DNA of 64,000 bases from Gammaproteobacteria bacterium (GTDB lineage Bacteria; Pseudomonadota; Gammaproteobacteria; Ga0077536): contig CAXXLL010000003.1 in the NCBI GenBank assembly GCA_963662545.2, positions 1,280,001-1,344,000 of the forward strand. The letters are read 5' to 3'. Both the position numbers and the translations under genes were made by a program. Position 1 is the stretch's first letter, and the number at the start of each line of letters is the position of its first letter. Shown piece after piece: positions 1,442-40,184 of the stretch. The notes below the pieces were generated by a model. The model had not been told where the DNA came from. It made no database searches and saw nothing but the letters and a program-made list of their open reading frames with translations.

Positions 1442-2287
1442 TCAGCGCGCGGATCCGATGCCGCAGAAAAAACCTTGGCTGGCCCAGCGCTCGAACCATT
1501 TGCCGACGGCATCGACAAGAATATCGGCGTCCACTCCGGGTACCGCGGCAGCGGCCTCGACGGCTTCACCAAGCGACAAGGCCTGATTCAGACCGCACAA
1601 CAGCTCAAACTGCGCAAGCGATAGATCGGTGCGCCACACGCGGTAGTCAATACGATAAACCGCCACATGCGTCGCCTTGGGAGCGGGAATGTCCGAGTGT
1701 CGGTCTTCTCGCACTGCGCTGATGTAGTCGTTTACCGGATAATCGAGCCGTAACAGGCGTAAAGCTGGCGTCAATTGTAGTTGCATGCGATTCCAGCTTT
1801 CGCTCGGGATTGCCTTGAGCTTTTCGATGGAGATCCGATCGACACGCCGCTCGTCGAAGACGTCCTGTATGGCGCGTTCCACGACCGCGACAGCGCCGAC
1901 AAATTCGCGGTGCGGCATATCTTGCGCTTCTGCTGCCAGATACTGCGGGAACTGCTTCCCGAGCGCGTTGAGATTAGGGTAGGTCGAAGGATGTCGGGTC
2001 AGATAGTCTTTCGCGGTTTTCTCGAAAAGATCGGGTCCAAAAATGTGTCGAACCGTCGGAAAATCATCTTCCATGACTTCGATCAGGCGCGGGAAATACA
2101 TGTTCGCGTAGATCGAGATCCGCTCGAGTGCAGACAGATCTCTCGACGGCAGCACGACTTCGTCGAGCGACGCCTTCTCGAGTGGGAGTAAAGCTTGCGC
2201 ACTATCGGATTGAAGGCCTATTTCGACGCCCTGCGGATGCATGACGAGCGTTTGCATCCACCGTTCGATCTGCTCGACCTTACGCAT
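1442..2287 (-). CDS. DUF2063-family (BufC/HvfC-like) MNIO partner protein
   Basis: ERISIYANMYFPRLIEVMEDDFP...YLTRHPS...LG..FP motif. The ATG at 2287 overlaps the DUF692 gene end; the longer ORF-track start is a shadow extension. Confidence 0.85.
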   Translation of the reverse strand: MRKVEQIERWMQTLVMHPQGVEIGLQSDSAQALLPLEKASLDEVVLPSRDLSALERISIYANMYFPRLIEVMEDDFPTVRHIFGPDLFEKTAKDYLTRHPSTYPNLNALGKQFPQYLAAEAQDMPHREFVGAVAVVERAIQDVFDERRVDRISIEKLKAIPSESWNRMQLQLTPALRLLRLDYPVNDYISAVREDRHSDIPAPKATHVAVYRIDYRVWRTDLSLAQFELLCGLNQALSLGEAVEAAAAVPGVDADILVDAVGKWFERWASQGFFCGIGSAR

Positions 2288-3122
2288 AGGCGGTCTCGAC
2301 CGTGTTGCGGAATTTAGCCGCTTTGAGCGCTTCGGTGTGCACTTCTTCGAAGGGCGGGATCTTGGCGTCCCATTCGAGCAGGGTCGCCGTGGCGCCTGCG
2401 CGCTTGAGCGCGTCGAGATAGAGATCCCATACGGGCTCGATGACGCGCCCGTCGTGGGTATCGATGCAATGCGTACCCTTGTCGGTGTGTCCCGCCAGGT
2501 GGATCTGAACCACGCGGTCGTAGGGGATGCCTTCGAGATATTCCCGCGGATCAAGATTGTGGTTGCGACAGGTGACGTAGACATTGTTTACGTCGAGCAA
2601 CAGTCCACAGTCCGCATTTTCTGACATGCGGGCCAGGAATACTTGCTCGGGCATGGTCGAACTCGCGAAAGTAAGATAAGTAGAAGGGTTTTCCAGTATC
2701 AGTGGACGTTCCAGGAAATCCTGAACGATACGGATCCGTTCAACCAGAAACTCAAGCGTCTCTTCGTTGTACGGGATCGGATACAGATCGTGACCATTGA
2801 GTCCCGCCACACCCGTCCAACACACATGGTCACCGAGCCAGACTGCATCGACACGTTCGGCTAAGGATTTGAGTTTTCGGAGATAATCGAAATCGACCGG
2901 ATCGGTACTGCCTATGGACATCGAGACGCCGTGCATAACGATCGGATAGCGCTCAGCGACCTGGTCGAGGACGTACAGCGGACGCCCCTCGGTGTCCATG
3001 AAGTTTTCGGAAACGATCTCGAACCAGTCGACCGCCGGCCAGTTCTCGAGAATATGGCCGAAGTGGTCCTTCCGCAGCCCGACGCCAATACCAAGGTCAG
3101 GAAATTTCCAGCGATTCGCCAT
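2280..3122 (-). CDS. DUF692 multinuclear non-heme iron oxidative enzyme (MNIO; MbnB/TglH/ChrH/BufB family)
   Basis: GIGVGLR..H, EIVSENF, HGVSMSIGS, DHVCW, ILENPSTY, LLLDVNNVYV, QIHLAGH, IDTH and LEWD motifs. Confidence 0.95.
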   Translation of the reverse strand: MANRWKFPDLGIGVGLRKDHFGHILENWPAVDWFEIVSENFMDTEGRPLYVLDQVAERYPIVMHGVSMSIGSTDPVDFDYLRKLKSLAERVDAVWLGDHVCWTGVAGLNGHDLYPIPYNEETLEFLVERIRIVQDFLERPLILENPSTYLTFASSTMPEQVFLARMSENADCGLLLDVNNVYVTCRNHNLDPREYLEGIPYDRVVQIHLAGHTDKGTHCIDTHDGRVIEPVWDLYLDALKRAGATATLLEWDAKIPPFEEVHTEALKAAKFRNTVETAYA

Positions 3123-6119: not shown

Positions 6120-6728
6120 TTACGTCTGGATTCCGATCTGGAAAGCTGGCCGGGCTTCGAGACGATTCACGTAGACGTCCAACGCCGTCATCTCGCCGGT
6201 GAAACACCCCAAGCGCCGACTCATGAAGCATGCATGTCCGAGCATGATGTCCGCGCCGGAGAAGTCTCCGATCAGGTATTCCCGCCGCTCGACCGCTTTG
6301 TCAACCGGCGCCAGCGCCTTGGTCAGCAAACGTTGCGCCTGGCCCAACACCTCTGCGTTTCTGCGATCCTCGGGAAGGAGCTTGGTTTGCACCACGATCG
6401 TGTTCACCGGCGGCATGACCATGCCCTCACAGTAGTGGAACCACTGCAGGTATGCGGGGAACTCCGGTGTGTTCACGTTGGGCTTCAGGGCGCCGTCCGT
6501 GTGCCGTGCAATGATGTAATCGACGATGGCGCCGGATTCGTAGAGCATCACTTCGCCGTCCTCTAATACCGGTACGCGGCCCAGCGGATGGCGCGCGCGG
6601 TGTTCATCTGATTTCAACTCTTTCGGGTGAAAGGCCATCTTGTTGAGCTCGTACTCCAGCCCGACCTCTTCCAACAACCAGACGATACGGCCCGCGCGTG
6701 AGTTGGGTGCGTGATGCAGTTTCAACAT
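6120..6728 (-). CDS. Glutathione S-transferase
   Basis: SRAGRIVWLLEE, HPLGRVPVLEDG, ESGAI, YLIGDFSGADI. Confidence 0.92.
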   Translation of the reverse strand: MLKLHHAPNSRAGRIVWLLEEVGLEYELNKMAFHPKELKSDEHRARHPLGRVPVLEDGEVMLYESGAIVDYIIARHTDGALKPNVNTPEFPAYLQWFHYCEGMVMPPVNTIVVQTKLLPEDRRNAEVLGQAQRLLTKALAPVDKAVERREYLIGDFSGADIMLGHACFMSRRLGCFTGEMTALDVYVNRLEARPAFQIGIQT

Positions 6729-6854
6729 GTCTAATTTACTCCCGACCGCGGTGATCGCCTTTATTGGAAATAATTTTCATTAAAAAAGCGTTTCCGCGGA
6801 AACACTGCGAACCTCGATGATAAGGGGAATGAGCCCGGGCGGTTTGGAAACCCT

Positions 6855-7862
6855 TTAGCCGCCGACTCGGGACATCTCCACCTTATCGAGGCCGATGGTC
6901 GCGGTGCTGCGGATCTCGGAGTAGCGGTCTGCGCGGCGGCGCCAAATGGCGCGCACAAACGCTGCGATATCGGCGTCCGAGGCTCCGCTTCGCAGCAGGC
7001 TGCGCAAATCGTGGCCGCGGGTGGCAAACAAACAGGTGAAGAGCTGCCCGTCGGCCGTGAGCCGCAGGCGGGTACAATCGCCGCAGAAGGCTTGTGTGAC
7101 CGACGCGATGATGCCGAATTCCCCTGCCCCGTCCCGATAGCGGTAGCGCCTGGCTACCTCCCCGCGGTAGTTAGCCTGTAACGGTTCCACCGGCCATTGC
7201 GACTCGATCATGGCCAGGATCTCGGCTGCGCTGACCACGTCCGCCGTGCGCCAGCCATTGCTGTGCCCCACGTCCATGTATTCGATGAACCGCAGGACAT
7301 GACCGGTGTAGCGGAAGTGTTGGGCCAGCTCGGCAACGCAGTGCTCATTCATGCCGCGCTTGACGACCATATTGACCTTGACCGGCGTCAGCCCGCACGC
7401 GGAAGCGGCCTCGATACCTTCGAGCACACGCGCGACGGGAACGGCAACGTCGTTCATCGCTTGGAAGGTATCGTCATCGAGTGCATCGAGGCTCACGGTG
7501 ACTCGCTGCAGTCCGGCATCCTTGAGGCTACGGGCTTTGCCGGCGAGCAGCGAACCGTTCGTGGTGAGCGTGAGATCGCGCACACCACCGAGCGGCGCCA
7601 GCATCTCGATGAGCCGCTCAAGGTCCCGGCGAAGCAGGGGTTCGCCGCCAGTGATGCGGATCTTCTCGACACCCTGGTCGACGAAGATGCACACCAGCTG
7701 GCGGATCTCATCGAAACTCAGCAACTCGGCGTGAGGCAGGAAGGCCCAATCACGCCCGAAGACCTCTTTCGGCATGCAGTACGGACAACGGAAATTGCAG
7801 CGATCGGTCACCGAGATCCGCAGATCGCGCAACGGACGTTGCAGCGTATCGGTAACGGTCAT
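6855..7862 (-). CDS. moaA: GTP 3',8-cyclase MoaA
   Basis: [36 protein letters not shown] and C-terminal MSRVGG. Start taken at the ATG at 7862 ([10 protein letters not shown]). Confidence 0.96.
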
Positions 7863-7885
7863 GGCTTGCTTAGGTGATCCGGGTA

Positions 7886-9211
7886 TCACGCGGCAATACT
7901 GGTGACCCCTCTCCACAGCGGCGCGACCACGACATTCAGTTGCGCATGCGCCTGCCTGAGTGCGGCCTCCACCTGCTCCGGGCGGGGCGCCCGAGCAAAG
8001 ATGAACCCGAGGTAGCTCGAACCTTCGGGCAGCGGCACCAGTTGATAACGATCCCGCACCTGTATGGTCACTTCCTCGACATAATCTACCGCGCGGGCCG
8101 CACCCACCCCCTCGACCCGTCTGAGGATGCCGGCCTGCGGCGTCGGGATCATCAACACACCGGCCGCCTGTTGCCAATCTGCGAACGCCAGGGGGGCGCC
8201 CACGGCATGCGATAACACCATCTCCTCGAGGCTGCCGGCGAGGCCGTATTCGAACAGCCGGCTGCACAGCCCGCCGATGGTCCTGGACGCAATCTCGAGC
8301 ATCCATACCCCCGCGTCATTGATGCGGCACTCGGCATGCACCGGCCCGTGCCGCAGTCCGTAAGCCCGGCAGCTCTCGGCCACCCGTTGTCCGACCTGGC
8401 GTTGTACGCCTGCATCGAGCCGCGAGGGGGTCACGAAGTAAGTCTCTTCAAAATAGGGGCCATTAAGGGGGTCGGTTTTATCGAAGACGGCGAGCACCTC
8501 GAGCTCCCCGTCGGTCAGTAGCGCCTCGACCGCGACCTCGACGCCCGGAACGAATTCCTCCACCAGAAGATAGTGCCGCTCTTCCGCATCACGCGCTTCG
8601 GCAACGATTCGGTCCACACGCTCACAGGCCGCGCGCAGCGCGTCCTCGCTATCCACCCGGATGACGCCACGGCTTGCCGACATGGCAAGGGGCTTGATCA
8701 CGCACGGGAATTCGATGCCTTCGAGCTGCCCCGCCAGCGGCTTCCGCAGATTAATGCGCGTATACGTCGGGACCGGGATCCCTGCTGCACTAAGGCGTGC
8801 CCGCGCGAGATCTTTGCGGCGCGCAATGCGCACGGCATCGGGTTCGTTATGGGGCAAGCCCAAACGACGGGCGGCGAGTGAAGCCAGCTCGGTCGTGGAA
8901 TCGTCGGTGCTGATAATTGCAGCAAAACAATGGTGACGGGCCGCCTCGAAGATGACCTCAAGCGCACCGCGGCTGTCGCTGAAATCGAGGTGTAATCCTT
9001 GCGCGTACGCGCTGACCAGCGAATGGCGGCCTTCGGAAGCGATCAGAACCTCGATGCCGAGGCGTCGGGCGGCATCGAGGTAAGGGACAGTCCGGTAGCT
9101 CCCGTGGGGAGCGATGATCAACACGCGTGCTTTGCCCGGTGCCGACACGCGCTGCAAATCCGCGCCGCCAGCGGCGCCCGTTCGAGGTCCAGCATGGAAG
9201 CTTGTAGACAT
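7886..9211 (-). CDS. ATP-grasp ligase of unknown substrate
   Basis: RKDLARARL...[50 protein letters not shown]. Start uncertain (9211 or 9271). Confidence 0.88.
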
Positions 9212-9251
9212 CGAAGCCGTCAACCGATGAAGATTGGCGGGGACGCGACGG

Positions 9252-9650
9252 CTAGAAGCCGCTGCCGCCACAGCCGCTGCACATGCCGCTGCCGCCTACA
9301 CTCTCAAAGACATTGTTAAAGACAAAGGATTCATTGAGGCCGTCCTTGACGTAGTCGATTTCACAGCCCCGTAGGAAGTTCAGGGCGACGGCATCCACCA
9401 CTAGCTGAAAGCCCTCAAACTGGCGGACACTGTCGTACTCGGTCCGCTCGTCGTCATAGGTCATCCCATAGCTGAGCCCATTGCATCCGCCACCCTCAAC
9501 AAAGATACGCAGGGCGGCGAACTCCTTCTCGGCCTCCTCCACGATGCTCGCAAGCTGCGCCTCGCAAACGGGCGTAATCGTGAAGGTTTGCTCGGTGATC
9601 TCCTGCGAATATTCAAACTTCGTCTCTTGCAACACGGTCTTGAACCTCAC
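9252..9650 (-). CDS. A-type Fe-S carrier (HesB/IscA/ErpA family) with an atypical C-terminus
   Basis: LRIFVEGGGCNGLSYGM, VVDAVALNFLRGCEIDY, FVFNN. Ends CSGCGGSGF instead of NPN...CGCGxSF. Confidence 0.88.
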   Translation of the reverse strand: MRFKTVLQETKFEYSQEITEQTFTITPVCEAQLASIVEEAEKEFAALRIFVEGGGCNGLSYGMTYDDERTEYDSVRQFEGFQLVVDAVALNFLRGCEIDYVKDGLNESFVFNNVFESVGGSGMCSGCGGSGF

Positions 9651-9747
9651 TCTTTTCGACTGTGATAATTCGGCAGAATAATTCTTGAGTATTTTACTCA
9701 GTTATTATAGCTTATTCAACCTCACCCTGGAGTGAAGCGCACCGACC

Positions 9748-10032
9748 ATGGCACATACAGTTAATTGCCCGATCCTGCAACGGGAGGCCGAGGGCCTCGA
9801 CGCACCCCCGCACCCCGGCACTTTGGGGACGCGCATCTATGAGGAAATTTCCAAGGAAGGATGGCAGAAGTGGCTGGAACGGCTCACCATGATCATGAAT
9901 GAGAACGGGTTGAGCACGGCAGATCCGGACGCTATACCCCTGATTGAAGATCACATGCGGGGGTTCCTGTTCGGAGAAGGCGATCTCGGCGGTCTGCCGC
10001 CGGGATTCGTCCCCCAGGGCCAGAAGAAGTAA
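9748..10032 (+). CDS. yggX: Fe(II)-trafficking / oxidative-damage protection protein YggX
   Basis: TVNC..L.REAEGLD.PP.PG.LG.RIYEEISKE.W..W...TMIMNE..L signature. Confidence 0.93.
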   Translation: MAHTVNCPILQREAEGLDAPPHPGTLGTRIYEEISKEGWQKWLERLTMIMNENGLSTADPDAIPLIEDHMRGFLFGEGDLGGLPPGFVPQGQKK

Positions 10033-10091
10033 GCAACCCTACAGAAGGATTTCCACAGGTCCACGGTTGGCATCTCCCCACCGGGTCGCGC

Positions 10092-11483
10092 TTATAGGTC
10101 GGCGAACTGCTCGTCCGTCGGCTCAGCGCAACAATACCAAGGCTCACTCAACTCCGCCGATGGCGCGCGGTCGGCCATTATCGGCAGGGACGGCGTCGGC
10201 CGAGCCAGGTACGCATGGGTAAGCGCCCAGATCTCCTTGAATAATTGCTCGCGGGGTTTCTCTGCGGCTTGCTGTACCACCCTCTGAACTTCGGCCTGCA
10301 GATCGTCTACCTTGGGATCGGCACTCGACCACGGATAAACGAGCGCCGCTTGCTTGAGGGGGCCGACGCGATCGCGGATCTCCTGCAACTCCAATAGCCG
10401 CGAGCCGGGCGGGATCAACAGGCGGATGGCGAGCTGCACCGGCGCGACTGCGCTCACCAGATCGAGCTCAGTAAGCGCCGCTAGAAGATCTCGGTAGTCG
10501 GTTAGTGTCGTCCAGGGCGTAAAAGCGACAAACGTTGGCGAGAGCGTCAGCCCGAGTTCATCGAAAATGCTGACTACGCGGTAGAAATCCTCGCGGGTGT
10601 GGCCTTTGTCCAGGAGGTCGAGGATCTGATCATCAACCGACTCGACGGCCGTGGTGACGAAAAGACACCCGGTAGATTTCAGCTTTGGTAGCAAGCGGCC
10701 GTGCGCGAGCAGGTGTTCGACCTTAATGGTTACGTCGTAGCTCAGCTCCGGGAATTGCTCATGCAGCGCCTCGACGATCCGCAAAGCGTGAGTCGGCCCG
10801 TTGAAGAAATCCGGATCGCCAAACGTAATATGGCGCGCGCCCGCCATCACCTGCTGGCGAAGGTCGGCCAGGACGATCGCGCGCGGCACGGCACGAAAAC
10901 GCCCGTTGTACACTGGGACCACCGGACAATGCCGGCAGCGGTGCTTGCATCCCCGACTGGCCTCGACGTAGCCGGTAACCCGCGTCTCGCCGTCGGGCAT
11001 CCGCAGAAACGCATAGCGCTCGAGCGCCGGGAGATCGCTACGGTCCGGTACCAGAAATCGCTGCCCGGCCAGGGAGACCCGCGGTTCCAGTTGCTCACCG
11101 GTCTTACATGACACGCCCGCTTCGAGCCTACCGGCGAGTGCCTTGAGTCCCGGCTCGAACTCGCCGCCCAGTACCGTCCCGACACCGAGTTCCCGAAGGT
11201 ACGCTTCGTTTGTCGGCGCATAAAGACCATAGGCGGCGATATGCGCGCGAGGGTTGAGGTGCTTCACCCGGGGGATCAGCCGGGCGGCCAGCCGGGTCGC
11301 CGTATGCATCGGCACATAGAAAGCCGCTAAGTCGGCTTTGCGAACGAGGTCTTCGTCCCAGCTCTCCACTGCCAGATCCAAGGTCCACACTGAATCGCCA
11401 CGCTCCCGCAAGCACGCAGCAGGCTCGGCCAGACCAAACGGTTGGTGGCCGAGTTCGTAGGTGGAAATGAGGACGACGTTCAA
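10092..11483 (-). CDS. Radical SAM protein with a B12-binding-type N-terminal domain, CUAEP/CCAEP-tail family
   Basis: YELGHQPFGLA N-terminus, EASRGCKHRCRHC (CxxxCxxC), HITFGDPDF, and C-terminal EPWYCCAEP encoded TGT TGC. Confidence 0.9.
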   Translation of the reverse strand: MNVVLISTYELGHQPFGLAEPAACLRERGDSVWTLDLAVESWDEDLVRKADLAAFYVPMHTATRLAARLIPRVKHLNPRAHIAAYGLYAPTNEAYLRELGVGTVLGGEFEPGLKALAGRLEAGVSCKTGEQLEPRVSLAGQRFLVPDRSDLPALERYAFLRMPDGETRVTGYVEASRGCKHRCRHCPVVPVYNGRFRAVPRAIVLADLRQQVMAGARHITFGDPDFFNGPTHALRIVEALHEQFPELSYDVTIKVEHLLAHGRLLPKLKSTGCLFVTTAVESVDDQILDLLDKGHTREDFYRVVSIFDELGLTLSPTFVAFTPWTTLTDYRDLLAALTELDLVSAVAPVQLAIRLLIPPGSRLLELQEIRDRVGPLKQAALVYPWSSADPKVDDLQAEVQRVVQQAAEKPREQLFKEIWALTHAYLARPTPSLPIMADRAPSAELSEPWYCCAEPTDEQFADL

Positions 11484-11734: not shown

Positions 11735-13864
11735 TTACGCCACCAGTTCTATCTGGACTAGATTATCCGAAAAGGTGGGGGCATGCCCCATATTCACAAA
11801 CTCGGCTGAACTGATGATATTCACCGTCCCCTTCGTCAGTTGTCGCCAGTAACCAAGCGTCGCAACGACCACACCCGGGTTGACATCATCGGTAAGCCTG
11901 GCAACGCCCTCAAATGCTCCCCGGTCATTAAAGACCCGCACTTGATCACCCTCTTTAATGCGACGTTCGTTGGCATCCACCGCGTTGATCAATACGAATT
12001 GTTCGCCCTGTTTTTTAATTTTGTTATTCATATTGGCGTAGCAGGAATTCAAAAGGGCATGGCTTTTAGGCGAGATGATATTCAATGGGTATGTCTTCGC
12101 CAATTCCGGATCCGTTGCAGCACTTTCTCTTGGCGGCACATAATCCGGCAAGGTATCCAACGGTTCACCGGGCTGAAAGGCCTCGTACATCTGACGAAAC
12201 GGCGCGATGACGAAATTACCGTTTGCGGCGGTTGCCGACAAGAGTTCACACTTACCTGATGGCGTCGGAAAGTTACCTTTCTTATGGGGCGCCCGATCAT
12301 CCGGCGTGCCAATCGTAAGACGGGCATAACCATGTTCGCGCAGGTAATTCAGATCGATTCCCTCACAAGCGGGTGAATCCCAGTCAATGAAATTTTCCAG
12401 GCATTCGGAATCCGACCATTTAAAACAGTCTTCCTCAAAACCCATGCGCGCCGCCAGGCGTCTGAAGATTTCTCTGTTGGAAACGGTTTCACCCGGTGAC
12501 TCGACACATTGGGTGTTGTAGGTAAGGTAGTTATTTCCCCAGGACAAGATGATGTCTTCCATTTCTGCGCCCATGGCAGCGGGAAGAACGATATCTGCAT
12601 AGGCTGCGGTATCCGAAATAAAATGCTCGGCGGAGACCAGGAACAAATCTTCCCGCTGCAAGCCTTCGACAATCTTGTCACACTCCGGCGCCTGGGTGAC
12701 CGGGTTTGAATTCCAGCACATCATCGATTTGATCGGCGGATCCAGGGGTATTTCACCAATCAATGCACGGCCAATTTGCAGATTATTGACCACGCGTGTG
12801 CCTTCCGGAATAAAGTCAGGTCGCGAAATAACGTCCAGCTTGTAGGGATGTTCCCAGAACGTCATTTGATGAATGCCGCCACCGACGTCACGCCAGGCAC
12901 CGGTTAATGCCGGAATGCAACACACAGCGCGAATCGTTTGCCCTCCACCGTAATGTTTTTCCAGGGCCACACCGATGCGGATGGCGGCCGGTTTTGTGGT
13001 CGATAATTCGCGAGCCAGCGTGCGTATGTCCTCCGCGCTTACGCCGGTAATTTCTTCGGCCCACTCCGGCGTGCGTGTTTCAGCCCTTGCAGCCAGTTCG
13101 TCATAACCAACGGTGTAATTATCGATGTAATCCTGATCGACGAGGCCCTCCTCGATAATCGTGCTAATTATTGCCATCGCGAGCGCACCATCGGTTCCGG
13201 GTTTTGGTGCGAGATGCCAATCGGCTTGCCTGGCAGTGCGCGACTTGTAGGCATCAATCACCACCACCTTGGCACCTTTTTTTCGGGCATCTTTAACGAA
13301 ATGCCAATGGTGCAGGTTGGTGCTAACGCTATTACATGCCCAGATAACGATATATTTTGAGTGAACAAAACTCTCAGGGTCCATTCCGCCACTGGGGCCA
13401 TAGGTCAGTACCCAGGCGGTGGCCGAACCTACGCCACACCATGTCCGCTCACAAACCGTTGCTCCGAGTCGGTTAAAAAAGGCATCCCCGCCGTTTAGTC
13501 CATTAATAAGTCCCTGATGACCTGCATAGCTGTAGGGCATGATCGCCTGCGGGCCATACTCATCGATAATGGCCTGCCATCGATCTGTGATTTCATCCAG
13601 TGCTTCGCCCCAGGAAATCCGCTCGAACTGTTTAGACCCTTTGGGCCCCGTTCGGCGCAGGGGATAGAGGATACGATCGGGATGGTAATGGCGCTTTTCA
13701 TAATCATCTAACTTTACACAGAGCCCGCCCCGCGTCATGGGATGTTCTTTATTACCATGGACACCGACCAGTTTTCCTTCTTCGACTTCAAGTACCATCG
13801 CACAGGTATCAGGACAATCGTGTGGACATCCTCCGTAATAGGTTTCTTTAACTTGTGCAGACAT
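11735..13864 (-). CDS. Cytoplasmic molybdopterin (bis-MGD) oxidoreductase, YoaE-like
   Basis: CPHDCPDTC Fe-S motif, GGLCVK, PLRRTGPKGS..FERISW, PGTDGALA, TAAYADIVLPA. No Tat signal. Confidence 0.92.
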   Translation of the reverse strand: MSAQVKETYYGGCPHDCPDTCAMVLEVEEGKLVGVHGNKEHPMTRGGLCVKLDDYEKRHYHPDRILYPLRRTGPKGSKQFERISWGEALDEITDRWQAIIDEYGPQAIMPYSYAGHQGLINGLNGGDAFFNRLGATVCERTWCGVGSATAWVLTYGPSGGMDPESFVHSKYIVIWACNSVSTNLHHWHFVKDARKKGAKVVVIDAYKSRTARQADWHLAPKPGTDGALAMAIISTIIEEGLVDQDYIDNYTVGYDELAARAETRTPEWAEEITGVSAEDIRTLARELSTTKPAAIRIGVALEKHYGGGQTIRAVCCIPALTGAWRDVGGGIHQMTFWEHPYKLDVISRPDFIPEGTRVVNNLQIGRALIGEIPLDPPIKSMMCWNSNPVTQAPECDKIVEGLQREDLFLVSAEHFISDTAAYADIVLPAAMGAEMEDIILSWGNNYLTYNTQCVESPGETVSNREIFRRLAARMGFEEDCFKWSDSECLENFIDWDSPACEGIDLNYLREHGYARLTIGTPDDRAPHKKGNFPTPSGKCELLSATAANGNFVIAPFRQMYEAFQPGEPLDTLPDYVPPRESAATDPELAKTYPLNIISPKSHALLNSCYANMNNKIKKQGEQFVLINAVDANERRIKEGDQVRVFNDRGAFEGVARLTDDVNPGVVVATLGYWRQLTKGTVNIISSAEFVNMGHAPTFSDNLVQIELVA

Positions 13865-14188: not shown

Positions 14189-15262
14189 ATGGATTTTGGT
14201 ATCAGTTTCCCGACCTACATCCGCTCCTGGCACGATGCCAAGATGGCGGAGGACTACGGTTTTTCACACGCCTGGTTCTACGACTCGCAGATGTGCTACA
14301 GCGATGTCTATGCCAGCATGGCGCTCTGTGCGTACCATACGCGAACGCTGAAACTCGGGACTTTCGTCTCCATTCTCGGCAACCGCATCGCCCCGGTCAC
14401 CGCGCATTCCATCGCCACCATCAACGAACTCGCGCCCGGACGGGCGATACTCGGGGTTGGCACGGGGTTCACCGGCCGCAACGTGATGGGCATGCCGCCG
14501 ATTCCCCTCAAGACGATGCGGGCACATGTCGAAATCATCCGCGACCTGTTGGCGGGCAAGGAGGTGCTCTACAGCGAAGGTGAGCGCGAACGTCACATTA
14601 AGTTTCTTCACCCCGACAGTGGCTACATCAACATCAAGGATCCGATCCCGATCCACATGGCGTCGAACGGACCCAAGGCTTTGAAACTCGCCGGCGAAAT
14701 CGCCGACGGTTGGATTACCATCGGCCTCGATCCGCAGCACATCGCCGACAGTATCAAAACCATCAAGGAAAGCGCGAAAGCGGTGGGCCGGGATTTATCC
14801 GAAGTCTATTGCAGCAACCTGACCTCGGGCTGCGTGCTGCGTCCGGGCGAATCGATTACCTCGCCCCGGGTCCTGCGTCAAATCGGCCCGTTCGCGATCC
14901 TGCTGCTGCACACCAACTGGGATCCGGTGGAGATGAAAGTCGGTCCCTTCGCGCCGCCCGCAGTGGCGCCGCTAGCCAAGCGCTATTTCGAAGAACACGT
15001 CATGCAGATGAAAACGCCGCTAGACCGGCGCTTTCAGGAAATGCACCTAGGTCACCTGGTCTTCGTCCGGCCGGGCGAAGAGGCGTTCATCACGCCCGAG
15101 CTGATCAAGATCTCGACTTTGACCGGATCTGCAGCGGAGATCATCGATCGCGTGCATGAACTCGAAGAAGCCGGGGTGAGCAACATCGCCTTGAACGTCT
15201 GCGGGACCGATGCGCGGGAGATGATCCGCGAGTTCGGCAATGAGGTGATTGCGAAACTCTGA
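14189..15262 (+). CDS. LLM-class flavin/F420-dependent oxidoreductase
   Basis: AEDYGFSHAWFYDSQ, ATINELAPGRAILGVGTG, GPKALKLAGEIADG. Confidence 0.9.
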   Translation: MDFGISFPTYIRSWHDAKMAEDYGFSHAWFYDSQMCYSDVYASMALCAYHTRTLKLGTFVSILGNRIAPVTAHSIATINELAPGRAILGVGTGFTGRNVMGMPPIPLKTMRAHVEIIRDLLAGKEVLYSEGERERHIKFLHPDSGYINIKDPIPIHMASNGPKALKLAGEIADGWITIGLDPQHIADSIKTIKESAKAVGRDLSEVYCSNLTSGCVLRPGESITSPRVLRQIGPFAILLLHTNWDPVEMKVGPFAPPAVAPLAKRYFEEHVMQMKTPLDRRFQEMHLGHLVFVRPGEEAFITPELIKISTLTGSAAEIIDRVHELEEAGVSNIALNVCGTDAREMIREFGNEVIAKL

Positions 15263-15507: not shown

Positions 15508-17757
15508 TCAAGCGGCGGCCGCGAGTTTCTCGACCGTCACTGACACGGTATGCAGGGCCGGCGTCATCGACGGTAGGTCGACGTCGGTCTCGTCGGAGAT
15601 ATCGTTGAAGCTCACAGTGTCGAGCTTGGACGCGATCGAAAGCTTCGTGCCGGGCACGTTCTGACCGTAGCCTTGGGGCAGGCTCAATACGCCCGGCATC
15701 ATTGTTTCGGTGACTTCGACCAAGGCCTCGAGCGACAAGTGGCGGGCTCTCACCCGCACGCGTTCACCGGTCTCGACCCCCAAACGCTCCGCGTCGTCGG
15801 GATGCATCAGAAGCATGCAGGCATTCTTGCCTTTGACGAGAAATTGCAGGTTGTTCATCCACGAATTGACCGAGCGCACGTGGCGCCGGCCGACGAGCAA
15901 TAGACCCTCGTCCGGCACGTATGCATCCAGCCGCTCGATATCGTCCATGATGACCTGCGGTGTCAGATCGATCTTCCCATTCGGGGTCTTGAGCAAGCCG
16001 GGCAGCTGTGGATCCATCGGGCCGAGGTCGAGGCCATGCGGGTGTTGCTTGAGCTTATCGAGATTCAGGCCTTCCGGTCTGGCGCCGAAGAAGTCGCCGT
16101 GCGGACCCGTCCGCAGCAGGACATCGTACAAGCGATTGGGTCCGGGCTCCTCGCCGATGAGTTGGCGCGCTTGCTGCCGCGATACGCGATCGCGGAGCGG
16201 GTGATCGGCCATGTACTTTTCGAGCAGGCCATCGACGGTCGCTTCTTCGAGCGCGGCCGGAGTGGTATCGGACAGGCGTGCGCCCAGGTTCAAAAAGACT
16301 TCCCAGTCCGCCAGGGTTCCGGGTTCGAGATCGAGCGCCGGCGCCGTCCACTTGGCATATTTTCTGACCATGAACGGCACGGAAAACAGCGGAAACGCCG
16401 CATGGCGCACGGCCGTTGGCGTCGGCAGGATGAAATCCGCGAAACGCGACGTTTCATTGACGTAGATATCCATGCAGACCAGCAAGTCGAGCGTCTGTAC
16501 GGCGGCCGCGGTTCGTTCGCGGTTCGGAATCGAAGTGACCGGGTTGCCCGTGATGGTGAAAAGGCCGCGTATCTGGCCCTGCCCTGGCGTGGTGATCTCG
16601 TCGGCCAGGGTGATCGCCGGCAGGACACCGCCGATCTCAGGCAGATTTCTGACGCGCGAGCGGAATTTCGCATAGGGCGGCTGATCGCCTTCGTAAGTAT
16701 CGTTGAGCAGCACGGACGGCACCACGCCGACCGGAAACATCGCACCGCCGGGCCGGTCCAAGTTACCGCTCAGGATATTGACGATGTCTAGCAGCCAGGA
16801 CGTGATCGATCCGAAGCGCTGCAGTGACGTCCCGACCCGGCCGTAGCACGCTGCGCGCTCGGCACCGAAGAACTCGACGGCTAGTTGACGAACGACATCG
16901 ACGGACACGCCCGTGATGGCAGAGACTCGTTCAGGCGGGAATCCGGAAGCAATGCGTTTTACGGTTTCGACCTGTTGTTCATCGATGAGCGCTTCGACCG
17001 CGCCGAGCGACACCAGGTTTTCCGCGAATGCGACGTTTATCATGCCCAACATGAGCTGGGAATCCGTGGACGGCCGGACGGCGACGTGTTGATCGGCCAG
17101 CGCCGCGGTTTCGGTGAAACGTGGATCCACCACCACCAGCTTGCCGCCGCGACTGCGGATGGCTTTCAACCGGCGCGGCATGCCGGGCGCGCCTATCAGG
17201 CTTCCGCCCGAAGCGACGGGATTGGCGCCAATGATCAAAAGATAGTCCGTACGGTCGAGGTCCGGTACCGGGATCGCAGCCTGGTCGCCGAACAGCAAAC
17301 CGCTCGAAAGGAGCTTAGGCGCGTGATCAATACTCGACGTGCCGAATGCGTTCTTCGATTTCAAACTCCTGGCGAACACGCCGCCGTAAAGCATCACGCC
17401 CGGATGATGGATGGTGGCGTTGCCGAAATACGTCGCGAGCCCATCGTAGCCGTAACCCTGTTGTATCGCCTTGGCCCGCGCCGCAATCTCATCAAAGGCC
17501 TCGTCCCAGCCGACTTCTTCAAAGTCGTTGCCTTTTTTGCGCAGCGGTTTGCGGACCAGATCGGGATCCTCCTGGATCTTGGTCAGGGCGTGCATTTTCG
17601 CGCAGACGAATCCGCGGCTGAAAGGATCGTCCTTGTCGCCTTTAGCCGAGATGACTTTCTGTTTTTCGCGATCAATTTCGAGAATGACCCCGCAATTGGC
17701 TTCGCAGAACGGGCAGATGCTGGTCTGCTTGATGATGTTTGCATGAGCTTGAGTCAT
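15508..17757 (-). CDS. Molybdopterin (bis-MGD) oxidoreductase of an uncharacterised subfamily
   Basis: CPFCEANCG...GFVCAK Fe-S motif, IIGANP..SGGS, VVVDPRFTETA, DIYVNETSRFADFILP, GRRH.RS.NSWM. Start MTQAH at 17757 with a GGAGG RBS. Confidence 0.92.
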   Translation of the reverse strand: MTQAHANIIKQTSICPFCEANCGVILEIDREKQKVISAKGDKDDPFSRGFVCAKMHALTKIQEDPDLVRKPLRKKGNDFEEVGWDEAFDEIAARAKAIQQGYGYDGLATYFGNATIHHPGVMLYGGVFARSLKSKNAFGTSSIDHAPKLLSSGLLFGDQAAIPVPDLDRTDYLLIIGANPVASGGSLIGAPGMPRRLKAIRSRGGKLVVVDPRFTETAALADQHVAVRPSTDSQLMLGMINVAFAENLVSLGAVEALIDEQQVETVKRIASGFPPERVSAITGVSVDVVRQLAVEFFGAERAACYGRVGTSLQRFGSITSWLLDIVNILSGNLDRPGGAMFPVGVVPSVLLNDTYEGDQPPYAKFRSRVRNLPEIGGVLPAITLADEITTPGQGQIRGLFTITGNPVTSIPNRERTAAAVQTLDLLVCMDIYVNETSRFADFILPTPTAVRHAAFPLFSVPFMVRKYAKWTAPALDLEPGTLADWEVFLNLGARLSDTTPAALEEATVDGLLEKYMADHPLRDRVSRQQARQLIGEEPGPNRLYDVLLRTGPHGDFFGARPEGLNLDKLKQHPHGLDLGPMDPQLPGLLKTPNGKIDLTPQVIMDDIERLDAYVPDEGLLLVGRRHVRSVNSWMNNLQFLVKGKNACMLLMHPDDAERLGVETGERVRVRARHLSLEALVEVTETMMPGVLSLPQGYGQNVPGTKLSIASKLDTVSFNDISDETDVDLPSMTPALHTVSVTVEKLAAAA

Positions 17758-17964
17758 CGGCCGCCTCCTGGTGTCGTGCCGGACGGTGACAGAAACACCG
17801 CGATGAGGGCACAAGCCGAGCTAAGCTGCTTCGAGCGCGCTCGGCATGGATTCGATCGACTTCGATTGAATCACAATTTGAAATGCGGTGCGATCTATTT
17901 GACTATACTTTCCTCCCCGGCTTACTGCTATTTGACGACGATTAATGACAACTGGAGATAACAC

Positions 17965-25162: not shown

Positions 25163-25984
25163 TCACTTGAGGCGCGTTTTCAGATCGGCCAAGCGTTCGG
25201 CCAGGCGATCGAACTCGCTTTCGCTGTGGTAACGCGATGCCTGGATGTACTGCGTCATGCCGAGTTCCGCACAGGCCGACAGCCGGTCTTCGGCCTCGGA
25301 CTGGTCTTCCGGAAGACCGCCGAGGACCACGATTTCAGGGCATTTTTTGCCCGCGGCGGCGGCCAGTTCCGACAAGGCTTGCGCCTTGGGGCGCAGCGCG
25401 TCCGCATCGAGGCCCATCGGCATCCAGCCGTCGCCCATCTGGACCGCCCGCCTGAGCGCCGGCGGATTCATGCCGCCGACGTAGATCGGGGGGCGCACCG
25501 GACGCGGACGAAACAGGAAAGGCTGGCCGTTCGACTCCACGATATCGTCGCCGGCATCGAAACAACGACGAATGAACGCGATGGTTTCGTCGGTGATGGC
25601 GCCGCGCCTGCTCCGGTCGACGCCGAGGGCCTTGAACTCGGGCTTCATCCAGCCGCAACCGACGCCAAAATGAAAACGTCCGCCCGAGAGTTCCTGGATC
25701 GTCGCCACCCACTTTGCCGTCTGCAGCGCAGGACGGTAAGGCAGCACCAATACCGACACACCGAGATCGATCGTCCGTGTGGCCGCCGCGAGAAAAGCGA
25801 GCGTGGCGAGCGGGTCGAGATAGCGGCCATCGGATCCTTCGGCATCATCCGGCGGAATCGCGATATGGTCGACCGTCCAGATGTGATCAAGGCTCAACTC
25901 CTCGGCGTAGCGAGCGCAATGTAGTAGACATTCGGCGTTCGCCTCGGGTCCCATGTTTCGCAGCATCGTGCCGATTTTCATCAT
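25163..25984 (-). CDS. LLM-class, probably F420-dependent oxidoreductase (Rv2161c-like)
   Basis: DHIWTVDHIAIP, LDPLATLAFLAAAT, SGGRFHFGVGCGW..EF.ALG, ALRRAVQMGDGW. Confidence 0.88.
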   Translation of the reverse strand: MMKIGTMLRNMGPEANAECLLHCARYAEELSLDHIWTVDHIAIPPDDAEGSDGRYLDPLATLAFLAAATRTIDLGVSVLVLPYRPALQTAKWVATIQELSGGRFHFGVGCGWMKPEFKALGVDRSRRGAITDETIAFIRRCFDAGDDIVESNGQPFLFRPRPVRPPIYVGGMNPPALRRAVQMGDGWMPMGLDADALRPKAQALSELAAAAGKKCPEIVVLGGLPEDQSEAEDRLSACAELGMTQYIQASRYHSESEFDRLAERLADLKTRLK

Positions 25985-36681: not shown

Positions 36682-39204
36682 TCAGAATCGATAGCGGACG
36701 GTGGCGCCAAAAGTGCTTGCAGTGAAATCCTTGTCGCCGTGACCGAGCATCAGCAGGTGGCCGATGCGGGGTTTCAGGCCGCTGAGCTGGTAGTTGTCAA
36801 ACGTCGAGTACTGGTAACGGAAGAACAACCGCACCGCCCACTGGACGCTCGCCTCGTAGAGTAGGCTGCCCTCGATAATGCGATCGGTGTTCTGCAGATC
36901 GGGAAAGTCAGTGCCGACCTCTTCCCCCGTAAGACCAGCGGCTAAGGCACCATCGGATTCGAAGCTGTAATCGCGCTGTTCATTCGAGTGTAAATAGACG
37001 CCGTGCAGGTCGAGAGTCAGGCGGTCCCCTACTTGCATCTCAATGTCGAAGCCCAGCGTCCACGTCGTCGCTTCCGACTTCATCTGCCACGCGTTTTCGA
37101 ACGGATACACCGCGTCGGTCGACACGACGAACGGCGGGAAGGCCAGCGGGAAAACCGGGAAGCCCGCCTCGAAATCCTGCGGATCAAAATTATCGATGGT
37201 CGTCAAATTGAAGGGGGCGCGGAGCCTGATCCCGTTGATAGACCGCATCTGGCGCTAGCGCGCCTCAATGCTGGCGTAGGCGCTGGCGTTCAACTTGGGC
37301 GACGGCTGAAAGGCTAATTCGATATTGCCCTCACCCGAGCGATTGAAATCGAGGCCGAATTGCGCGTCGTAATCGTTGTCGATGAAGCGCGCGCTGGCCG
37401 AAACGTCGCCGATTTCGCCAACCGCCGCGTTGACGCGGGCGTTGATGATCTTTTGCTTGCGATCAGCCAGGTCGAACTGACGGAGTTCCGCGAGCGAGCG
37501 CAGGGGAGTTGCCGACAGAACCAGAAAGGGCAGCGCGAAATCGGGCGGGCCGACACTGTAGAACCGGAAGTCGCGGGTCACGTCGAAGTCGTCGCCCTTC
37601 TTGTCCGCAAATTCGTAGCTGACCAGAAACGTCGCGAACCATAAACCCCTGTTGGTGACGCTGACCCGGTAGCGTTCCTCTTCCGTTTTCTTTCGGGCCC
37701 GGTGGTCGCGCTCGAAGGTTTCACGCTCGTATTCGAACTCGACTGTGGTGCGCCAGCCGGGGTGCACAACGGCACCTCCCTTGAGGTTCCACTTGTCGTA
37801 ACCGTAGGGAATCGATTTGTAGCGGGGGATTGTAAAGAACGCCCTGAAGAAGCCGTCCTCAGGAAGGTAGCCGAAGAAATCGAGGGCGGGATTAAACGCT
37901 TCGTAATTCGTATCGCTGTCGCGATCGTAGTAGCGTAACTCGCCCTTTAGCCGAAGCTGGCGGAATGGGCGGAACTGGAGGCGCGAATGCGACAGGAAGG
38001 TCCTGACCTCGGCCCGCGCCGTCGGTTTGCCGAGCGCGGCGTCGGGATCGGGCCAGAACGGCGCAGCCGGGTTGACCGGCGGCGCGAGTAAGACCTCGTC
38101 CTGCTCGGCCCGGCTATACGAGACGGAGGTCGTGAAGCGCCCGGAGAACGGCACAATGAAACCGAGGTCGCCCTTTAGAGTGTGCCAGCGATTGTCGGGA
38201 TCGAGTGCAAGCTGGCCCACCTCGCTGCCGCTGAACGCAAAGGGGTTCTCCCAGCGCAGGGCTTCGTTGTCGTTGTCGAAGTAGGAAAAACCGTAGGAAA
38301 GGTTGAGCTGGAGCCACGGGTGTGCGAGTTGCAGACCCGCTGTCAGGTTCTGCGTCGTGTAGTCGACCGGCTCGATGGTCTCGATTACGCTCCCCGCGCC
38401 AGGAGACGGAAACGCGAACGCGAGTGACCCGCTCGACGGCTTCTCGCCCTTGCGCTCCTCAATGCGGTACTCGGCGAACAACCGCAGGATGCGAAACGGC
38501 TTAGCCTCGACCTCGATCCGGCCGCGCTCGCGTTTGACCAAGAGGCGTCGGAATGGCAGCTCGGCGAGCACCGCGTCGATCTCGGCGTCAGTGCTGGCGC
38601 CGGGCACAAGTTCGGGAGGCAGCCGCAGGCTGCTTGTGCCGATCCCTTCGTAAAGGCTCGTCGCGTCGTTCATCAGGCGATGGGGGATCTCGTCGTACGA
38701 GCCGCGCACGCGCAGCCAACCGAGAATCCCGGCCTCCACCGTATAATGCTGGTCGTCGCGCTTGACCGCGCCGCCGTCGATGTGCGCGTAGGCACCGTGT
38801 TCACCGCCACGCAGATCGACGAAGAAGTCATTTAGCACAAGGCTCGGACTGCGATCGAGGTAATCGTCCCAGTAGGCGCGGCGCGTGTCGTTGCCATTGT
38901 TGAAAAGCCCGAGTTCGAACGACCCGCGCGCGAGCAAGCCTTCACTCAGTACCGTGTAGTCCGGCGGCGCGAACGGAAATGGGTAGAGCGTGCCCGTAGG
39001 CGTGCGCCGGCGCGTCGGTCGATACAAGCTCAGACCGCGCGGATCGAGGCTGCGCGAGGCCTCGAGCGAGCGCACATTGATGCGCGTGCCCTCGCCCTCT
39101 CCGGCTGCGGCGGCGGCGAGCGCGATCGTGGCGAGCAGCACGGTCGCACGGAGGCCTCGACGCTTCGCCCCTCCCGGTGGCACCGGCGCAGGGTGTTCAA
39201 TCAT
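36682..39204 (-). pseudogene. mtrB: MtrB/PioB-family decaheme-associated outer-membrane porin interrupted by one in-frame TAG (37255-37257)
   Basis: ORFs 37255-39204 and 36682-37248 share a frame (...EAR*RQMRS...). IEPVDYTT, S.FDND..AL.W.NPF and L.PDN motifs. C-terminal beta-signal VRYRF. Lies directly after the decaheme cytochrome gene. Confidence 0.85.
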
Positions 39205-39212
39205 CGTTCACC

Positions 39213-40184
39213 TCAGCGATGGAAGCGTGCCCCGGAGGGATGGTTGGAACCGTGGATTCGGACGTGGCAGTTGACGCAGCCGCGGTTGATCAGCCGCTCG
39301 TCCGGCCGGGCCCCATTGGCGAGGTTGCCGCGGGTCAGGAGCGCAGTCGGATGATCCAATACCCCGATTTGCACGTGACACTGTTGGCACAGGAAGGGCG
39401 GCGCAGTCACTAGTAGATTCTCGCGGTTTGATCCGTGCGGCAAATGACAGCTCAAGCAGTTCTCGGTGACCGGGGCGTGTTCCCACAGAAACGGGCCGCG
39501 CTTCTCGGCATGGCAGCCGAAGCAAAGCTGGTTGACCGAATCCGCTCGCAAAAGCGGATCGGTCGCGGAGCCGTGCGGGTTGTGACAGTCGACGCAATTC
39601 ATCTTACCCTCGAGCAAGGGCATATGGGAACGCTTGCGGAATTGCAGACGCTGAGTCTTGTGGCACGTGAAGCAGGTTTCGTTGACGGTCGCTTCGCGCA
39701 GCAGACCGGCGGCGGAGGTTCGCGTCATCGGATTGTGGCAATCGCTGCACCCGATATTCTGGGCTTCGTGCGTCGACCCCAGCCAGTGGAAACGGTCGCC
39801 GCCGACGTGACACTCGAGGCACACTGCATTTTGCGTCGTGACGGCTTGGGCTGAGCGCCGCGTAAACGCGATGATCGAGTCGGGGACCGTGGCATTCGCA
39901 AAATGTGCCGAGCCCGGGCCGTGGCAAGCCTCGCATCCGCGCGCCTGCTGTTCGCCACGGGGATGATTCTTGAAAACCCGTGCGTGCACTGTGTCGTCCC
40001 AGTGCTCCGCTTCGACCTGGTGACAGATACGGCATTTTGCCTCGCCGATATAGGTGCGTTCCTGGCCGCTGGCGCCCTCATTGCCCGGGTCGGCGCCTGA
40101 TTCCTTTGCTTGTGCCAGGCTGATCCACGCGCCGAGGACGATGACGATACTGGACAATGTCGTCAATGAACGATAGGCGGGCAC
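39213..40184 (-). CDS. mtrA: Periplasmic decaheme cytochrome c, MtrA/DmsE/PioA/MtoA family
   Basis: Signal peptide, ten CxxCH motifs, EKRGPFLWEHAPV, C-terminal IHGSNHPSG. Confidence 0.95.
   Translation of the reverse strand: MPAYRSLTTLSSIVIVLGAWISLAQAKESGADPGNEGASGQERTYIGEAKCRICHQVEAEHWDDTVHARVFKNHPRGEQQARGCEACHGPGSAHFANATVPDSIIAFTRRSAQAVTTQNAVCLECHVGGDRFHWLGSTHEAQNIGCSDCHNPMTRTSAAGLLREATVNETCFTCHKTQRLQFRKRSHMPLLEGKMNCVDCHNPHGSATDPLLRADSVNQLCFGCHAEKRGPFLWEHAPVTENCLSCHLPHGSNRENLLVTAPPFLCQQCHVQIGVLDHPTALLTRGNLANGARPDERLINRGCVNCHVRIHGSNHPSGARFHR

Follow-up and report, generated by a model that had tools for sequence, protein, structure and literature searches.

A radical S-adenosylmethionine (SAM) protein with a C-terminal CCAEP tail, encoded in a 64,000-nucleotide stretch of a gammaproteobacterial genome (hereafter the window; contig CAXXLL010000003.1, positions 1,280,001 to 1,344,000), belongs to a conserved unit whose other members are an ATP-grasp enzyme of the L-amino-acid-ligase type and the iron-trafficking protein YggX, often accompanied by an Fe-S carrier. 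What might such a unit do? By analogy with ArsL, an enzyme whose tail binds As(III), we propose, with a probability of roughly 0.4, that the radical SAM protein (rSAM) would add SAM's 3-amino-3-carboxypropyl (ACP) moiety to a soft atom held by its tail, that the ligase would build the product into a dipeptide, and that YggX and the carrier would maintain the cluster. The proposal builds on observed features: the assignment of the proteins to families, ArsL as the sister family of the rSAM, a tail that alternates between cysteine and selenocysteine (Sec), and the conserved gene linkage. The genes concerned, together with the adjoining moaA, are these:

10092-11483, minus strand: CCAEP-tail radical SAM protein, 463 amino acids (NF040546)
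9748-10032, plus strand: yggX, Fe(2+)-trafficking / oxidative-damage protection protein, 94 amino acids (PF04362, NF003817)
9252-9650, minus strand: A-type Fe-S carrier variant (IscA-like), 132 amino acids (TIGR00049)
7886-9271, minus strand: L-amino-acid-ligase-type ATP-grasp enzyme, 461 amino acids for the open reading frame (ORF) as listed (PF13535, PF18603, PF18130)
6855-7865, minus strand: moaA, GTP 3',8-cyclase (TIGR02666, 384.9 bits, cut-off 284)

All five had been named by a first-pass annotation made from the DNA alone; they lie where that annotation placed them, and family scans agree with its names.

The rSAM scores 618.6 bits, against a cut-off of 500, on the model NF040546 ('CUAEP/CCAEP-tail radical SAM (seleno)protein') and covers profile positions 1-467 of 468. 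Its N-terminal Rossmann-like domain is followed by the radical SAM core with the cluster motif C179-KHR-C183-RH-C186 (CxxxCxxC) and by the C-terminal tail; the protein ends in ...EPWYCCAEPTDEQFADL, the tail reading E447-P-W-Y-C451-C452-A-E-P. This family is widespread, with members in many soil bacteria. A word-indexed search returned more than 8000 proteins at E<=1e-20, a representative library held 6496 matches at E<=1e-3 and 579 clusters (50% identity) at E<=1e-30, and a collection with one genome per species contained at least 583 matching stretches; sequence identity between phyla is about 55-60%. Searches of the ESM Atlas with the rSAM and the ATP-grasp protein gave only known family names again. 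That the family has no assigned reaction, as the first-pass annotation had it, agrees with the searched literature, in which the terms 'CUAEP' and 'CCAEP' appear only in a preprint (Haft 2022 preprint). The family is named in the accessible part of that preprint, where it is described as uncharacterised and CU motifs are interpreted as sites for heavy metals.

How constant is the tail? From the at least 583 stretches we fetched 80 loci around rSAM homologues of other genomes, taking as much as 10 kb of flanking DNA per side, and read TGA as U. The tail WYC[C/U]AEP is present in 79 of the 80 and unreadable in one. Its second position is TGA followed by an in-frame AEP, hence Sec, in 46 loci, Cys in 33 and unreadable in one, making the family a selenoprotein in most loci examined; the window rSAM carries the Cys form. 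Many full-length library representatives, down to 33% identity, likewise keep W[YF]C[C/stop]AEP, and few have variant tails. An alignment of 18 rSAM sequences shows two further constants: C451 and C273 are both invariant, and C273 is specific to the family, its position being Leu in the ArsL sequence compared. The invariant histidines H60, H81, H185, H241 and H295 also differ in that ArsL.

The link to ArsL comes from the second-best NCBIfam model for the rSAM, which is ArsL (NF040542; 269.4 bits, near full length), with the next family at 40 bits. The window protein misses the ArsL cut-off of 450 bits. A library representative with the tail KRCCIKC (P0246) does pass it, with 477 bits; the CUAEP model gives it 362 bits, and it is 35% identical to the window rSAM over 426 amino acids (E 2e-82). 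Since the two models cross-score and P0246 shows this identity, we regard the ArsL and CUAEP/CCAEP families as each other's only close relatives. ArsL, the nearest relative that has been studied, takes part in making arsinothricin, an antibiotic that contains arsenic. According to the accessible parts of two reports, ArsL is a rare exception, a radical SAM enzyme of canonical fold that makes an ACP radical: it cuts the C-gamma-S bond of SAM to yield methylthioadenosine (MTA) and the ACP radical, while the three cysteines of its C-terminal RCCLKC hold As(III) (10.1101/2024.02.01.577332, 10.64898/2026.04.29.721666). Deletion of the ArsL tail is described there as abolishing product formation while SAM cleavage is kept and Fe and S contents are unchanged (10.1101/2024.02.01.577332, 10.64898/2026.04.29.721666); as tail removal left Fe and S untouched in these accounts, the ArsL tail carries no auxiliary cluster. 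ArsL is also described as retaining bound As through purification. There is no ars operon in the present case, ars genes being absent from the annotated ORFs of the window and from the conserved neighbour clusters.

Transferred to the CCAEP family, this chemistry would run as follows. A [4Fe-4S] cluster on C179, C183 and C186 would cleave SAM reductively, and the homology to ArsL points to a cut at the C-gamma-S bond, releasing MTA and an ACP radical. The flexible tail W-Y-C451-C452 would present a bound soft atom as radical acceptor, by comparison with the As(III)-binding RCCLKC of ArsL, and C273 may help to present it. For the acceptor, a chalcogen such as S or Se is a candidate, and so is a metal(loid). 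The product would be a 4-substituted 2-aminobutyrate, that is, an amino acid resembling methionine or homocysteine; methionine itself is ACP-S-CH3. The ATP-grasp enzyme, judged by its dipeptide-ligase homology, would then couple this product to a second amino acid or an amine via an acyl-phosphate, and YggX with an A-type or Nfu carrier would, if their family annotations are a guide, supply or repair the oxygen-labile cluster.

The tail itself invites another explanation, according to which the rSAM would work on a small molecule or peptide by way of a canonical 5'-deoxyadenosyl radical, its mobile CC/CU tail would serve as relay for redox equivalents or hydrogen atoms, and the ATP-grasp enzyme would make or consume the substrate. 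Thioredoxin reductase and ribonucleotide reductase have C-terminal dithiol or selenolthiol redox tails, and alternation of Sec and Cys, found here as 46 Sec and 33 Cys among the 80 loci, is typical of redox-active positions. With two cysteines where ArsL has three, the tail could serve redox chemistry instead of binding, which counts against our proposal as well. The predicted fold can be cited in the same sense. The AlphaFold2 model of the rSAM (mean predicted local distance difference test, pLDDT, 88.5) matches AprD4 best (TM-score 0.67), then TsrM, OxsB and MgmA, and then MiaB and RimO; AprD4, OxsB and MgmA generate 5'-deoxyadenosine, and TsrM performs no reductive SAM cleavage. An AprD4-like fold is, however, common to ArsL homologues and says nothing about the mode of cleavage. 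Thiol-redox genes do occur nearby, a GST in the window and, in one locus (L001), a GFA-domain protein and a 1-Cys peroxiredoxin. Yet the sole close family is ArsL, in which an ACP radical is made and the substrate is held by the tail, and a redox tail leaves unexplained the MerB, HgcAB-like and CpaM contexts described below. On balance we consider a redox tail unlikely, though a serious contender.

The same cysteines could alternatively belong to an enzyme inserting S or Se in the manner of MiaB, RimO or LipA, with C273, C451 and C452 or Sec452 holding a consumed auxiliary cluster or a sulfane atom that an Nfu or A-type carrier and YggX rebuild after every turnover. Three extra invariant Cys positions (C273 and the tail) would be at hand, MiaB and RimO are among the fold matches (TM-score 0.54-0.60, E 1e-12 to 1e-8), NCBIfam models for MiaB, MtaB and RimO match weakly (E 1e-7 to 1e-2), and Fe-S carriers adjoin the rSAM in 7 of the 80 loci and in the window, YggX in 40. 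Set against this are the similarity to MiaB-type proteins of about 30 bits versus 269 for ArsL, the unusual ligand that selenocysteine would make for an Fe-S cluster, and the Fe and S contents of ArsL, which, in the accounts accessible to us, do not change on tail removal. We judge such an insertion reaction improbable.

Under the ACP-transfer proposal, YggX and the carrier would have a maintenance role that agrees with their families. YggX protects labile clusters, and NfuA rebuilds clusters of radical SAM enzymes, including the sacrificial cluster of lipoyl synthase. The YggX of the window is full length by both models (PF04362, 98.3 bits, cut-off 27; NF003817, 99.7 bits, cut-off 74). The carrier is A-type at the subfamily level (TIGR00049, 81.8 bits, cut-off 58.8) and misses each equivalog, IscA with 61 versus 150.6 bits, ErpA with 73.5 versus 117 and SufA with 58 versus 136. 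The canonical cysteine signature of A-type carriers is C...C-G-C; in the window protein, which also contains GGGCNG, the place of the canonical C-G-C is taken by CSGCGGSGF (CxxC) at a Gly-rich C-terminus. It belongs to a subfamily of 395 proteins at E<=1e-5, whose named members among the matches listed are Gammaproteobacteria; of 120 relatives among the matches listed, 115 have the C-terminal Gly-rich CxxC and all 120 have GGGCxG.

The idea that the rSAM has its own dedicated Fe-S carrier, put forward in the first-pass annotation, holds in part. A carrier does recur, as Nfu or NfuA-type proteins stand beside the rSAM in 7 of the 80 loci: four NfuA-type proteins, which are the four IscA-like matches of our tblastn search and combine a degenerate A-type domain with an Nfu CxxC domain, and three more of Nfu type. 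The CxxC-tail A-type variant of the window, on the other hand, was found in none of the 80; the searches suggest, indirectly, that in three close relatives one contig carries both it and the rSAM.

Is the ATP-grasp enzyme a suitable partner? PF13535 (ATP-grasp_4, 107.6 bits), PF18603 (LAL_C2, 49.6 bits) and PF18130 (ATPgrasp_N, 38.4 bits) all pass their cut-offs. As a single sequence it matches the L-amino acid ligase BL00235 (PDB 3VOT) with an E value of 2.9e-30, and a profile of its 18-sequence family matches the same structure over the full length with 7.4e-67, followed by BacD. By these sequence comparisons it is an ATP-grasp of the L-amino-acid-ligase type. Because the conserved part begins near residue 47, its start may be the ATG at 9211. 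The relevant portion of the literature describes BL00235 as forming Met-Gly and Met-Met (PMC6920838). A chalcogen as acceptor would fit this methionine-specific relative and the neighbours of amino-acid and thiol type. Co-folding of the rSAM with residues 45-461 of the ATP-grasp protein gave a score of 0.00 in both runs, which, the runs being without controls, speaks neither for nor against binding.

The first-pass annotation had made its case depend on the rSAM, the ATP-grasp enzyme and the IscA variant being found together; in other genomes the first two are, and YggX with them. We searched the 80 loci by tblastn with the window proteins and by clustering of ORFs, which gave the same picture. 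Homologues of the ATP-grasp protein were found in 54 loci, of YggX in 40, of the IscA-like domain in 4, of MoaA in 1, and of the Mo-oxidoreductase and the GST in none. In all 54 loci the ATP-grasp homologue (38-46% identity) lies within 1.5 kb of the rSAM, and this frequency argues for a linkage beyond chance. In the subset of 55 loci that extend 3 kb or more to either side of the rSAM, the ATP-grasp gene is present in 40 and yggX in 31. The ligase gene is on the same strand, a median of 25 nt downstream of the rSAM, often with overlapping stop and start codons, and its position varies: it may lie downstream or upstream, or with NfuA or DUF169 in between. YggX stands within 5 kb in its 40 loci, in three arrangements, at a median distance of 1.4 kb and usually convergent. 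The pair of rSAM and ATP-grasp is thus kept through at least six gene orders (> and < giving the direction of the gene):

rSAM > ATP-grasp < YggX
ATP-grasp > NfuA > rSAM (L018, L035, L046, L047)
ATP-grasp > rSAM, with Nfu divergent (L045)
YggX > rSAM > ATP-grasp (L032, L072)
Nfu > rSAM > ATP-grasp (L024, L071)
rSAM > DUF169 > ATP-grasp < YggX (L012, L015)
the order seen in the window itself

In the searched literature we found no paper that treats YggX, an ATP-grasp and a radical SAM protein together, and no prior description of the linkage of this family to a ligase of this type, YggX, Fe-S carriers, MerB, HgcAB-like proteins or DUF169.

A search for longer, fused forms of the rSAM gave ten matches. 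Three of them (P0272, P0274, P0275), at first sight fusions of rSAM and ATP-grasp, were rejected as frameshift artefacts that show no more than adjacency, as they lack the WYC tail and their junctions look like an out-of-frame translation of the tail region. The junctions of P0277 (ATP-grasp, then rSAM) and P0273 (a PF00501 adenylating enzyme, then rSAM) are doubtful, and P0271 and P0276 are uninformative.

Several findings weigh against the proposal. No ATP-grasp gene lies within reach in 15 of the 55 well-flanked loci, so the ligase is not an obligatory next-door neighbour, and these 15 include the two loci (L001, L002) whose rSAMs are closest to that of the window (70% identity; sister group in a quick maximum-likelihood tree of 81 rSAMs, the 80 loci plus the window, with an SH-aLRT support of 99). 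Loci labelled as Acidobacteriota make up 50 of the 80, and three more, labelled 'Verrucomicrobiia' (L078), 'Methylomirabilota' (L026) and 'Dormiibacterota' (L019), nest within acidobacterial clades and are either mis-binned or transferred; the independent lineages are therefore fewer than these numbers would imply. In the 80 loci the rSAM has no conserved neighbour for export or resistance and none of the ars, mer or sel type. With housekeeping flanks and no exporter or immunity genes, a core function fits better than an antibiotic. Finally, the MerB, HgcAB-like and CpaM contexts number 2, 2 and 2 of the 80 loci and, being mostly in an rSAM clade without ATP-grasp, may be features of a diverged subfamily.

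Among the 70 assessable rows of the tree, some have an adjacent ATP-grasp gene and others lack it, a pattern that requires at least eight changes. At L019 a phage-integrase-family gene (6270-7574) occupies the position that the ATP-grasp gene has in the sister locus L013, which suggests that the ligase was displaced by an insertion there. The housekeeping genes flanking the acidobacterial loci, aconitase in 39 loci and then G6PD and glucokinase, were considered as members of the unit and rejected, since they reflect synteny within Acidobacteriota and the three nested loci.

A second set of contexts, with partners that recur in loci lacking the ligase, bears on the nature of the acceptor atom. 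Only one apparent fusion has a clean junction: a library representative of 695 amino acids (P0124), from a separate search, joins a full CUAEP rSAM (623 bits) to a MerB domain through an in-frame, Pro-rich linker. Genes with a MerB domain also occur in L001 (94 bits), beside an Ldi-like protein, the GFA-domain protein and the peroxiredoxin mentioned above, and in L017 (51 bits; Nonomuraea). In the latter, a homologue of GCS2-type glutamate-cysteine ligase is divergent from the rSAM, and a methyltransferase, a class I/II aminotransferase, the MerB-domain protein and DUF169 are found downstream. Two loci (L006, L065) have DUF169, then CpaM (254 bits), then an HgcAB-like fusion (329 bits, cut-off 285). 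A heavy-metal P-type ATPase neighbours the rSAM in L002, and an arginase-family enzyme is nearby in L061 and L067. The MerB and HgcAB-like contexts would agree with a soft metal(loid) as acceptor, and so would the reading of CU motifs in the preprint that names the family, whose accessible part lists vicinal CC/CU motifs as soft-metal sites in MerA, MerT, HgcA, HgcB and Sao proteins (Haft 2022 preprint).

DUF169 is found in 7 of the 80 loci, directly after the rSAM in six and 3.7 kb away in the seventh, and has four invariant cysteines. Its co-occurrence with the ATP-grasp gene in L012, L015 and L018 makes it a bridge between both sets of contexts. An AlphaFold2 model of DUF169 (pLDDT 90.6) has no fold match in the PDB at E<=1e-3, and the searched literature yielded nothing on the function of CpaM, HgcAB-like proteins or DUF169. 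As an observation in its own right, two acidobacterial metagenome-assembled genomes have the run DUF169 > CpaM > HgcAB-like (L006, 11169-13903; L065, 10363-13042) directly downstream of a CUAEP rSAM gene of the Sec type, possibly a hint at the role of non-mercury HgcAB-like fusions.

Around the module in the window, the following features are of note:

11735-13864, minus strand: Mo-oxidoreductase of the DMSO-reductase family, located 251 nt upstream of the rSAM gene
11709-11693: terminator-like hairpin after the Mo-oxidoreductase gene, between it and the rSAM gene
9678-9708, no strand assigned: imperfect palindrome ATAATTCTTGAGTA-TTT-TACTCAGTTATTAT, 31 nt, in the divergent promoter region of yggX and of the carrier and ATP-grasp genes
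6806-6787, minus strand: terminator-like hairpin after moaA

The rSAM and yggX genes are convergent, 59 nt apart. An AT-rich gap of 97 nt separates the divergent yggX and carrier genes, and a consensus scan places promoter-like sites on both strands within it (9640-9719). The carrier and ATP-grasp genes overlap by 20 nt or are separated by 40 nt, and ATP-grasp and moaA are 20 nt apart. Taken together, the consensus scans suggest three transcription units in the region of the module. The palindrome, with arms of 14 nt that are 79% complementary, is a candidate operator by its sequence; its core has a single mismatch-free occurrence in the window, and a search of the window found no second copy upstream of the rSAM gene. 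Scans of the whole window for Rfam families and for tRNAs gave no match each, and thus no riboswitch for molybdenum cofactor (Moco) or SAM.

The position of the module next to moaA and a Mo-enzyme gene, noted in the first-pass annotation together with the methylation typical of cobalamin (B12)-dependent rSAMs, suggests a B12-dependent methylase which, together with the ligase, would make or modify a Moco-linked cofactor. The arrangement in the window is suggestive, moaA following the ATP-grasp gene after 20 nt and the Mo-oxidoreductase gene preceding the rSAM by 251 nt, and there is a weak match to the B12-binding domain PF02310 (25.7 bits). The neighbourhood counts largely refute this idea: a MoaA homologue accompanies the rSAM in 1 of the 80 loci, about 2 kb away and on the opposite strand (L045), the Mo-oxidoreductase in none, and moaA and the Mo-oxidoreductase gene are therefore local bystanders outside the module. 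A terminator-like hairpin, moreover, parts the latter from the rSAM. As to methylation, the PF02310 match is below its cut-off of 32.1 bits, the best fold is AprD4 and the closest family ArsL, and the accessible part of a 2026 review describes AprD4 and ArsL homologues as not binding cobalamin; for these reasons the B12 lead finds no support. We regard a B12- and Moco-linked function as very improbable. In the window, moaA is probably co-transcribed with the ATP-grasp gene. Two Mo-oxidoreductase genes (11735-13864 and 15508-17814, both on the minus strand), of the DMSO-reductase/formate-dehydrogenase family and below every equivalog cut-off, lie within 6 kb, and they likely explain the position of moaA.

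Elsewhere in the window, a gene of the MbnB/TglH/ChrH family (DUF692; 2280-3122, 350 bits) and, after it, one of the DUF2063/HvfC-like kind (1442-2584) lie on the minus strand. The pair resembles modification systems for peptides of the RiPP type (made on ribosomes and altered after translation), and small upstream ORFs could encode the precursor. A DmsE-family decaheme cytochrome (39213-40184, minus strand) adjoins an outer-membrane protein gene of the MtrB/PioB type, which consists of two same-frame ORFs (37255-39204 and 36682-37248, minus strand) parted by an in-frame TAG (37255-37257) and could represent a pseudogene, a sequencing error or read-through. Four genes encode luciferase-like oxidoreductases (LLM, F420/FMN-type; 14189-15262, 25163-25984, 41229-42215 and 45034-46122), one of which adjoins a cytochrome P450 gene (43668-44939).

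What would follow if the proposal of ACP transfer were correct? The conserved partners, ligase, YggX and carriers, turn an uncharacterised rSAM into a testable two-step pathway, and the MerB-like, HgcAB-like/CpaM and DUF169 contexts provide additional candidate partner genes. In its fullest form, the scenario has the large and often Sec-bearing sister family of ArsL use the ACP radical to bond carbon to a heteroatom other than arsenic, such as Se, S or a soft metal, on the CC/CU tail, a dedicated ligase build the resulting methionine-like amino acid into a dipeptide within the core physiology of bacteria living in soil, and YggX serve as a dedicated helper; taken as a whole, this is possible but doubtful. 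If true, ArsL-type chemistry would not be an arsenic curiosity, there would be a new biological route to carbon-heteroatom bonds and a novel amino acid or dipeptide in abundant soil phyla, and YggX, whose role is still debated, would gain a concrete client enzyme.

How does the module compare with known systems? With the ArsL/ArsM arsinothricin system it shares the Rossmann-like N-terminal domain, the CxxxCxxC core and a Cys-rich C-terminal tail, and a SAM methyltransferase adjoins some members of the CUAEP/CCAEP family (L006, L065, L017, L038). It differs in the tail, WYC[C/U]AEP with two Cys/Sec instead of RCCLKC with three Cys, in being often a selenoprotein family, and in the usual partner, an amino-acid ligase plus YggX rather than ArsM. 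The diphthamide pathway offers a likeness of chemical logic only, in that SAM supplies an ACP radical and methylation and/or the formation of an amide at the expense of ATP comes next: Dph2 transfers the ACP radical, Dph5 methylates and Dph6 amidates ATP-dependently. Its proteins have no sequence relation to the module, and membership is not implied; Dph2, in the accessible descriptions, is not a PF04055 protein and acts on a protein histidine. MiaB, RimO and LipA, which are served by NfuA, resemble the rSAM in fold and in the Fe-S carriers found beside the rSAM gene, but sequence similarity is weak. With the organomercurial and corrinoid systems (MerB, HgcAB and the SAO locus of Haft) the family is connected through MerB and HgcAB-like/CpaM genes fused to or beside some CUAEP rSAMs, whereas the window contains none of MerB, HgcAB-like or CpaM genes.

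Among the L-amino-acid ligases (Lals), the ATP-grasp protein of the window has each of the three domains typical of Lals and can be aligned with BL00235 from end to end, but it passes no equivalog, with 38 bits on BacD versus a cut-off of 850 and 36 on DdaF versus 840. Its family has invariant motifs of its own, including FDKPDPLEGPYFEET and IGGLCS, whose Cys BL00235 lacks, and, unlike in Lal systems, no exporter or immunity gene accompanies it. Several Lals join an unusual amino acid, made by the products of neighbouring genes, into a dipeptide, as does BacD/YwfE, and TabS, RizA and DdaF are further Lals that couple an unusual amino acid from neighbouring genes.

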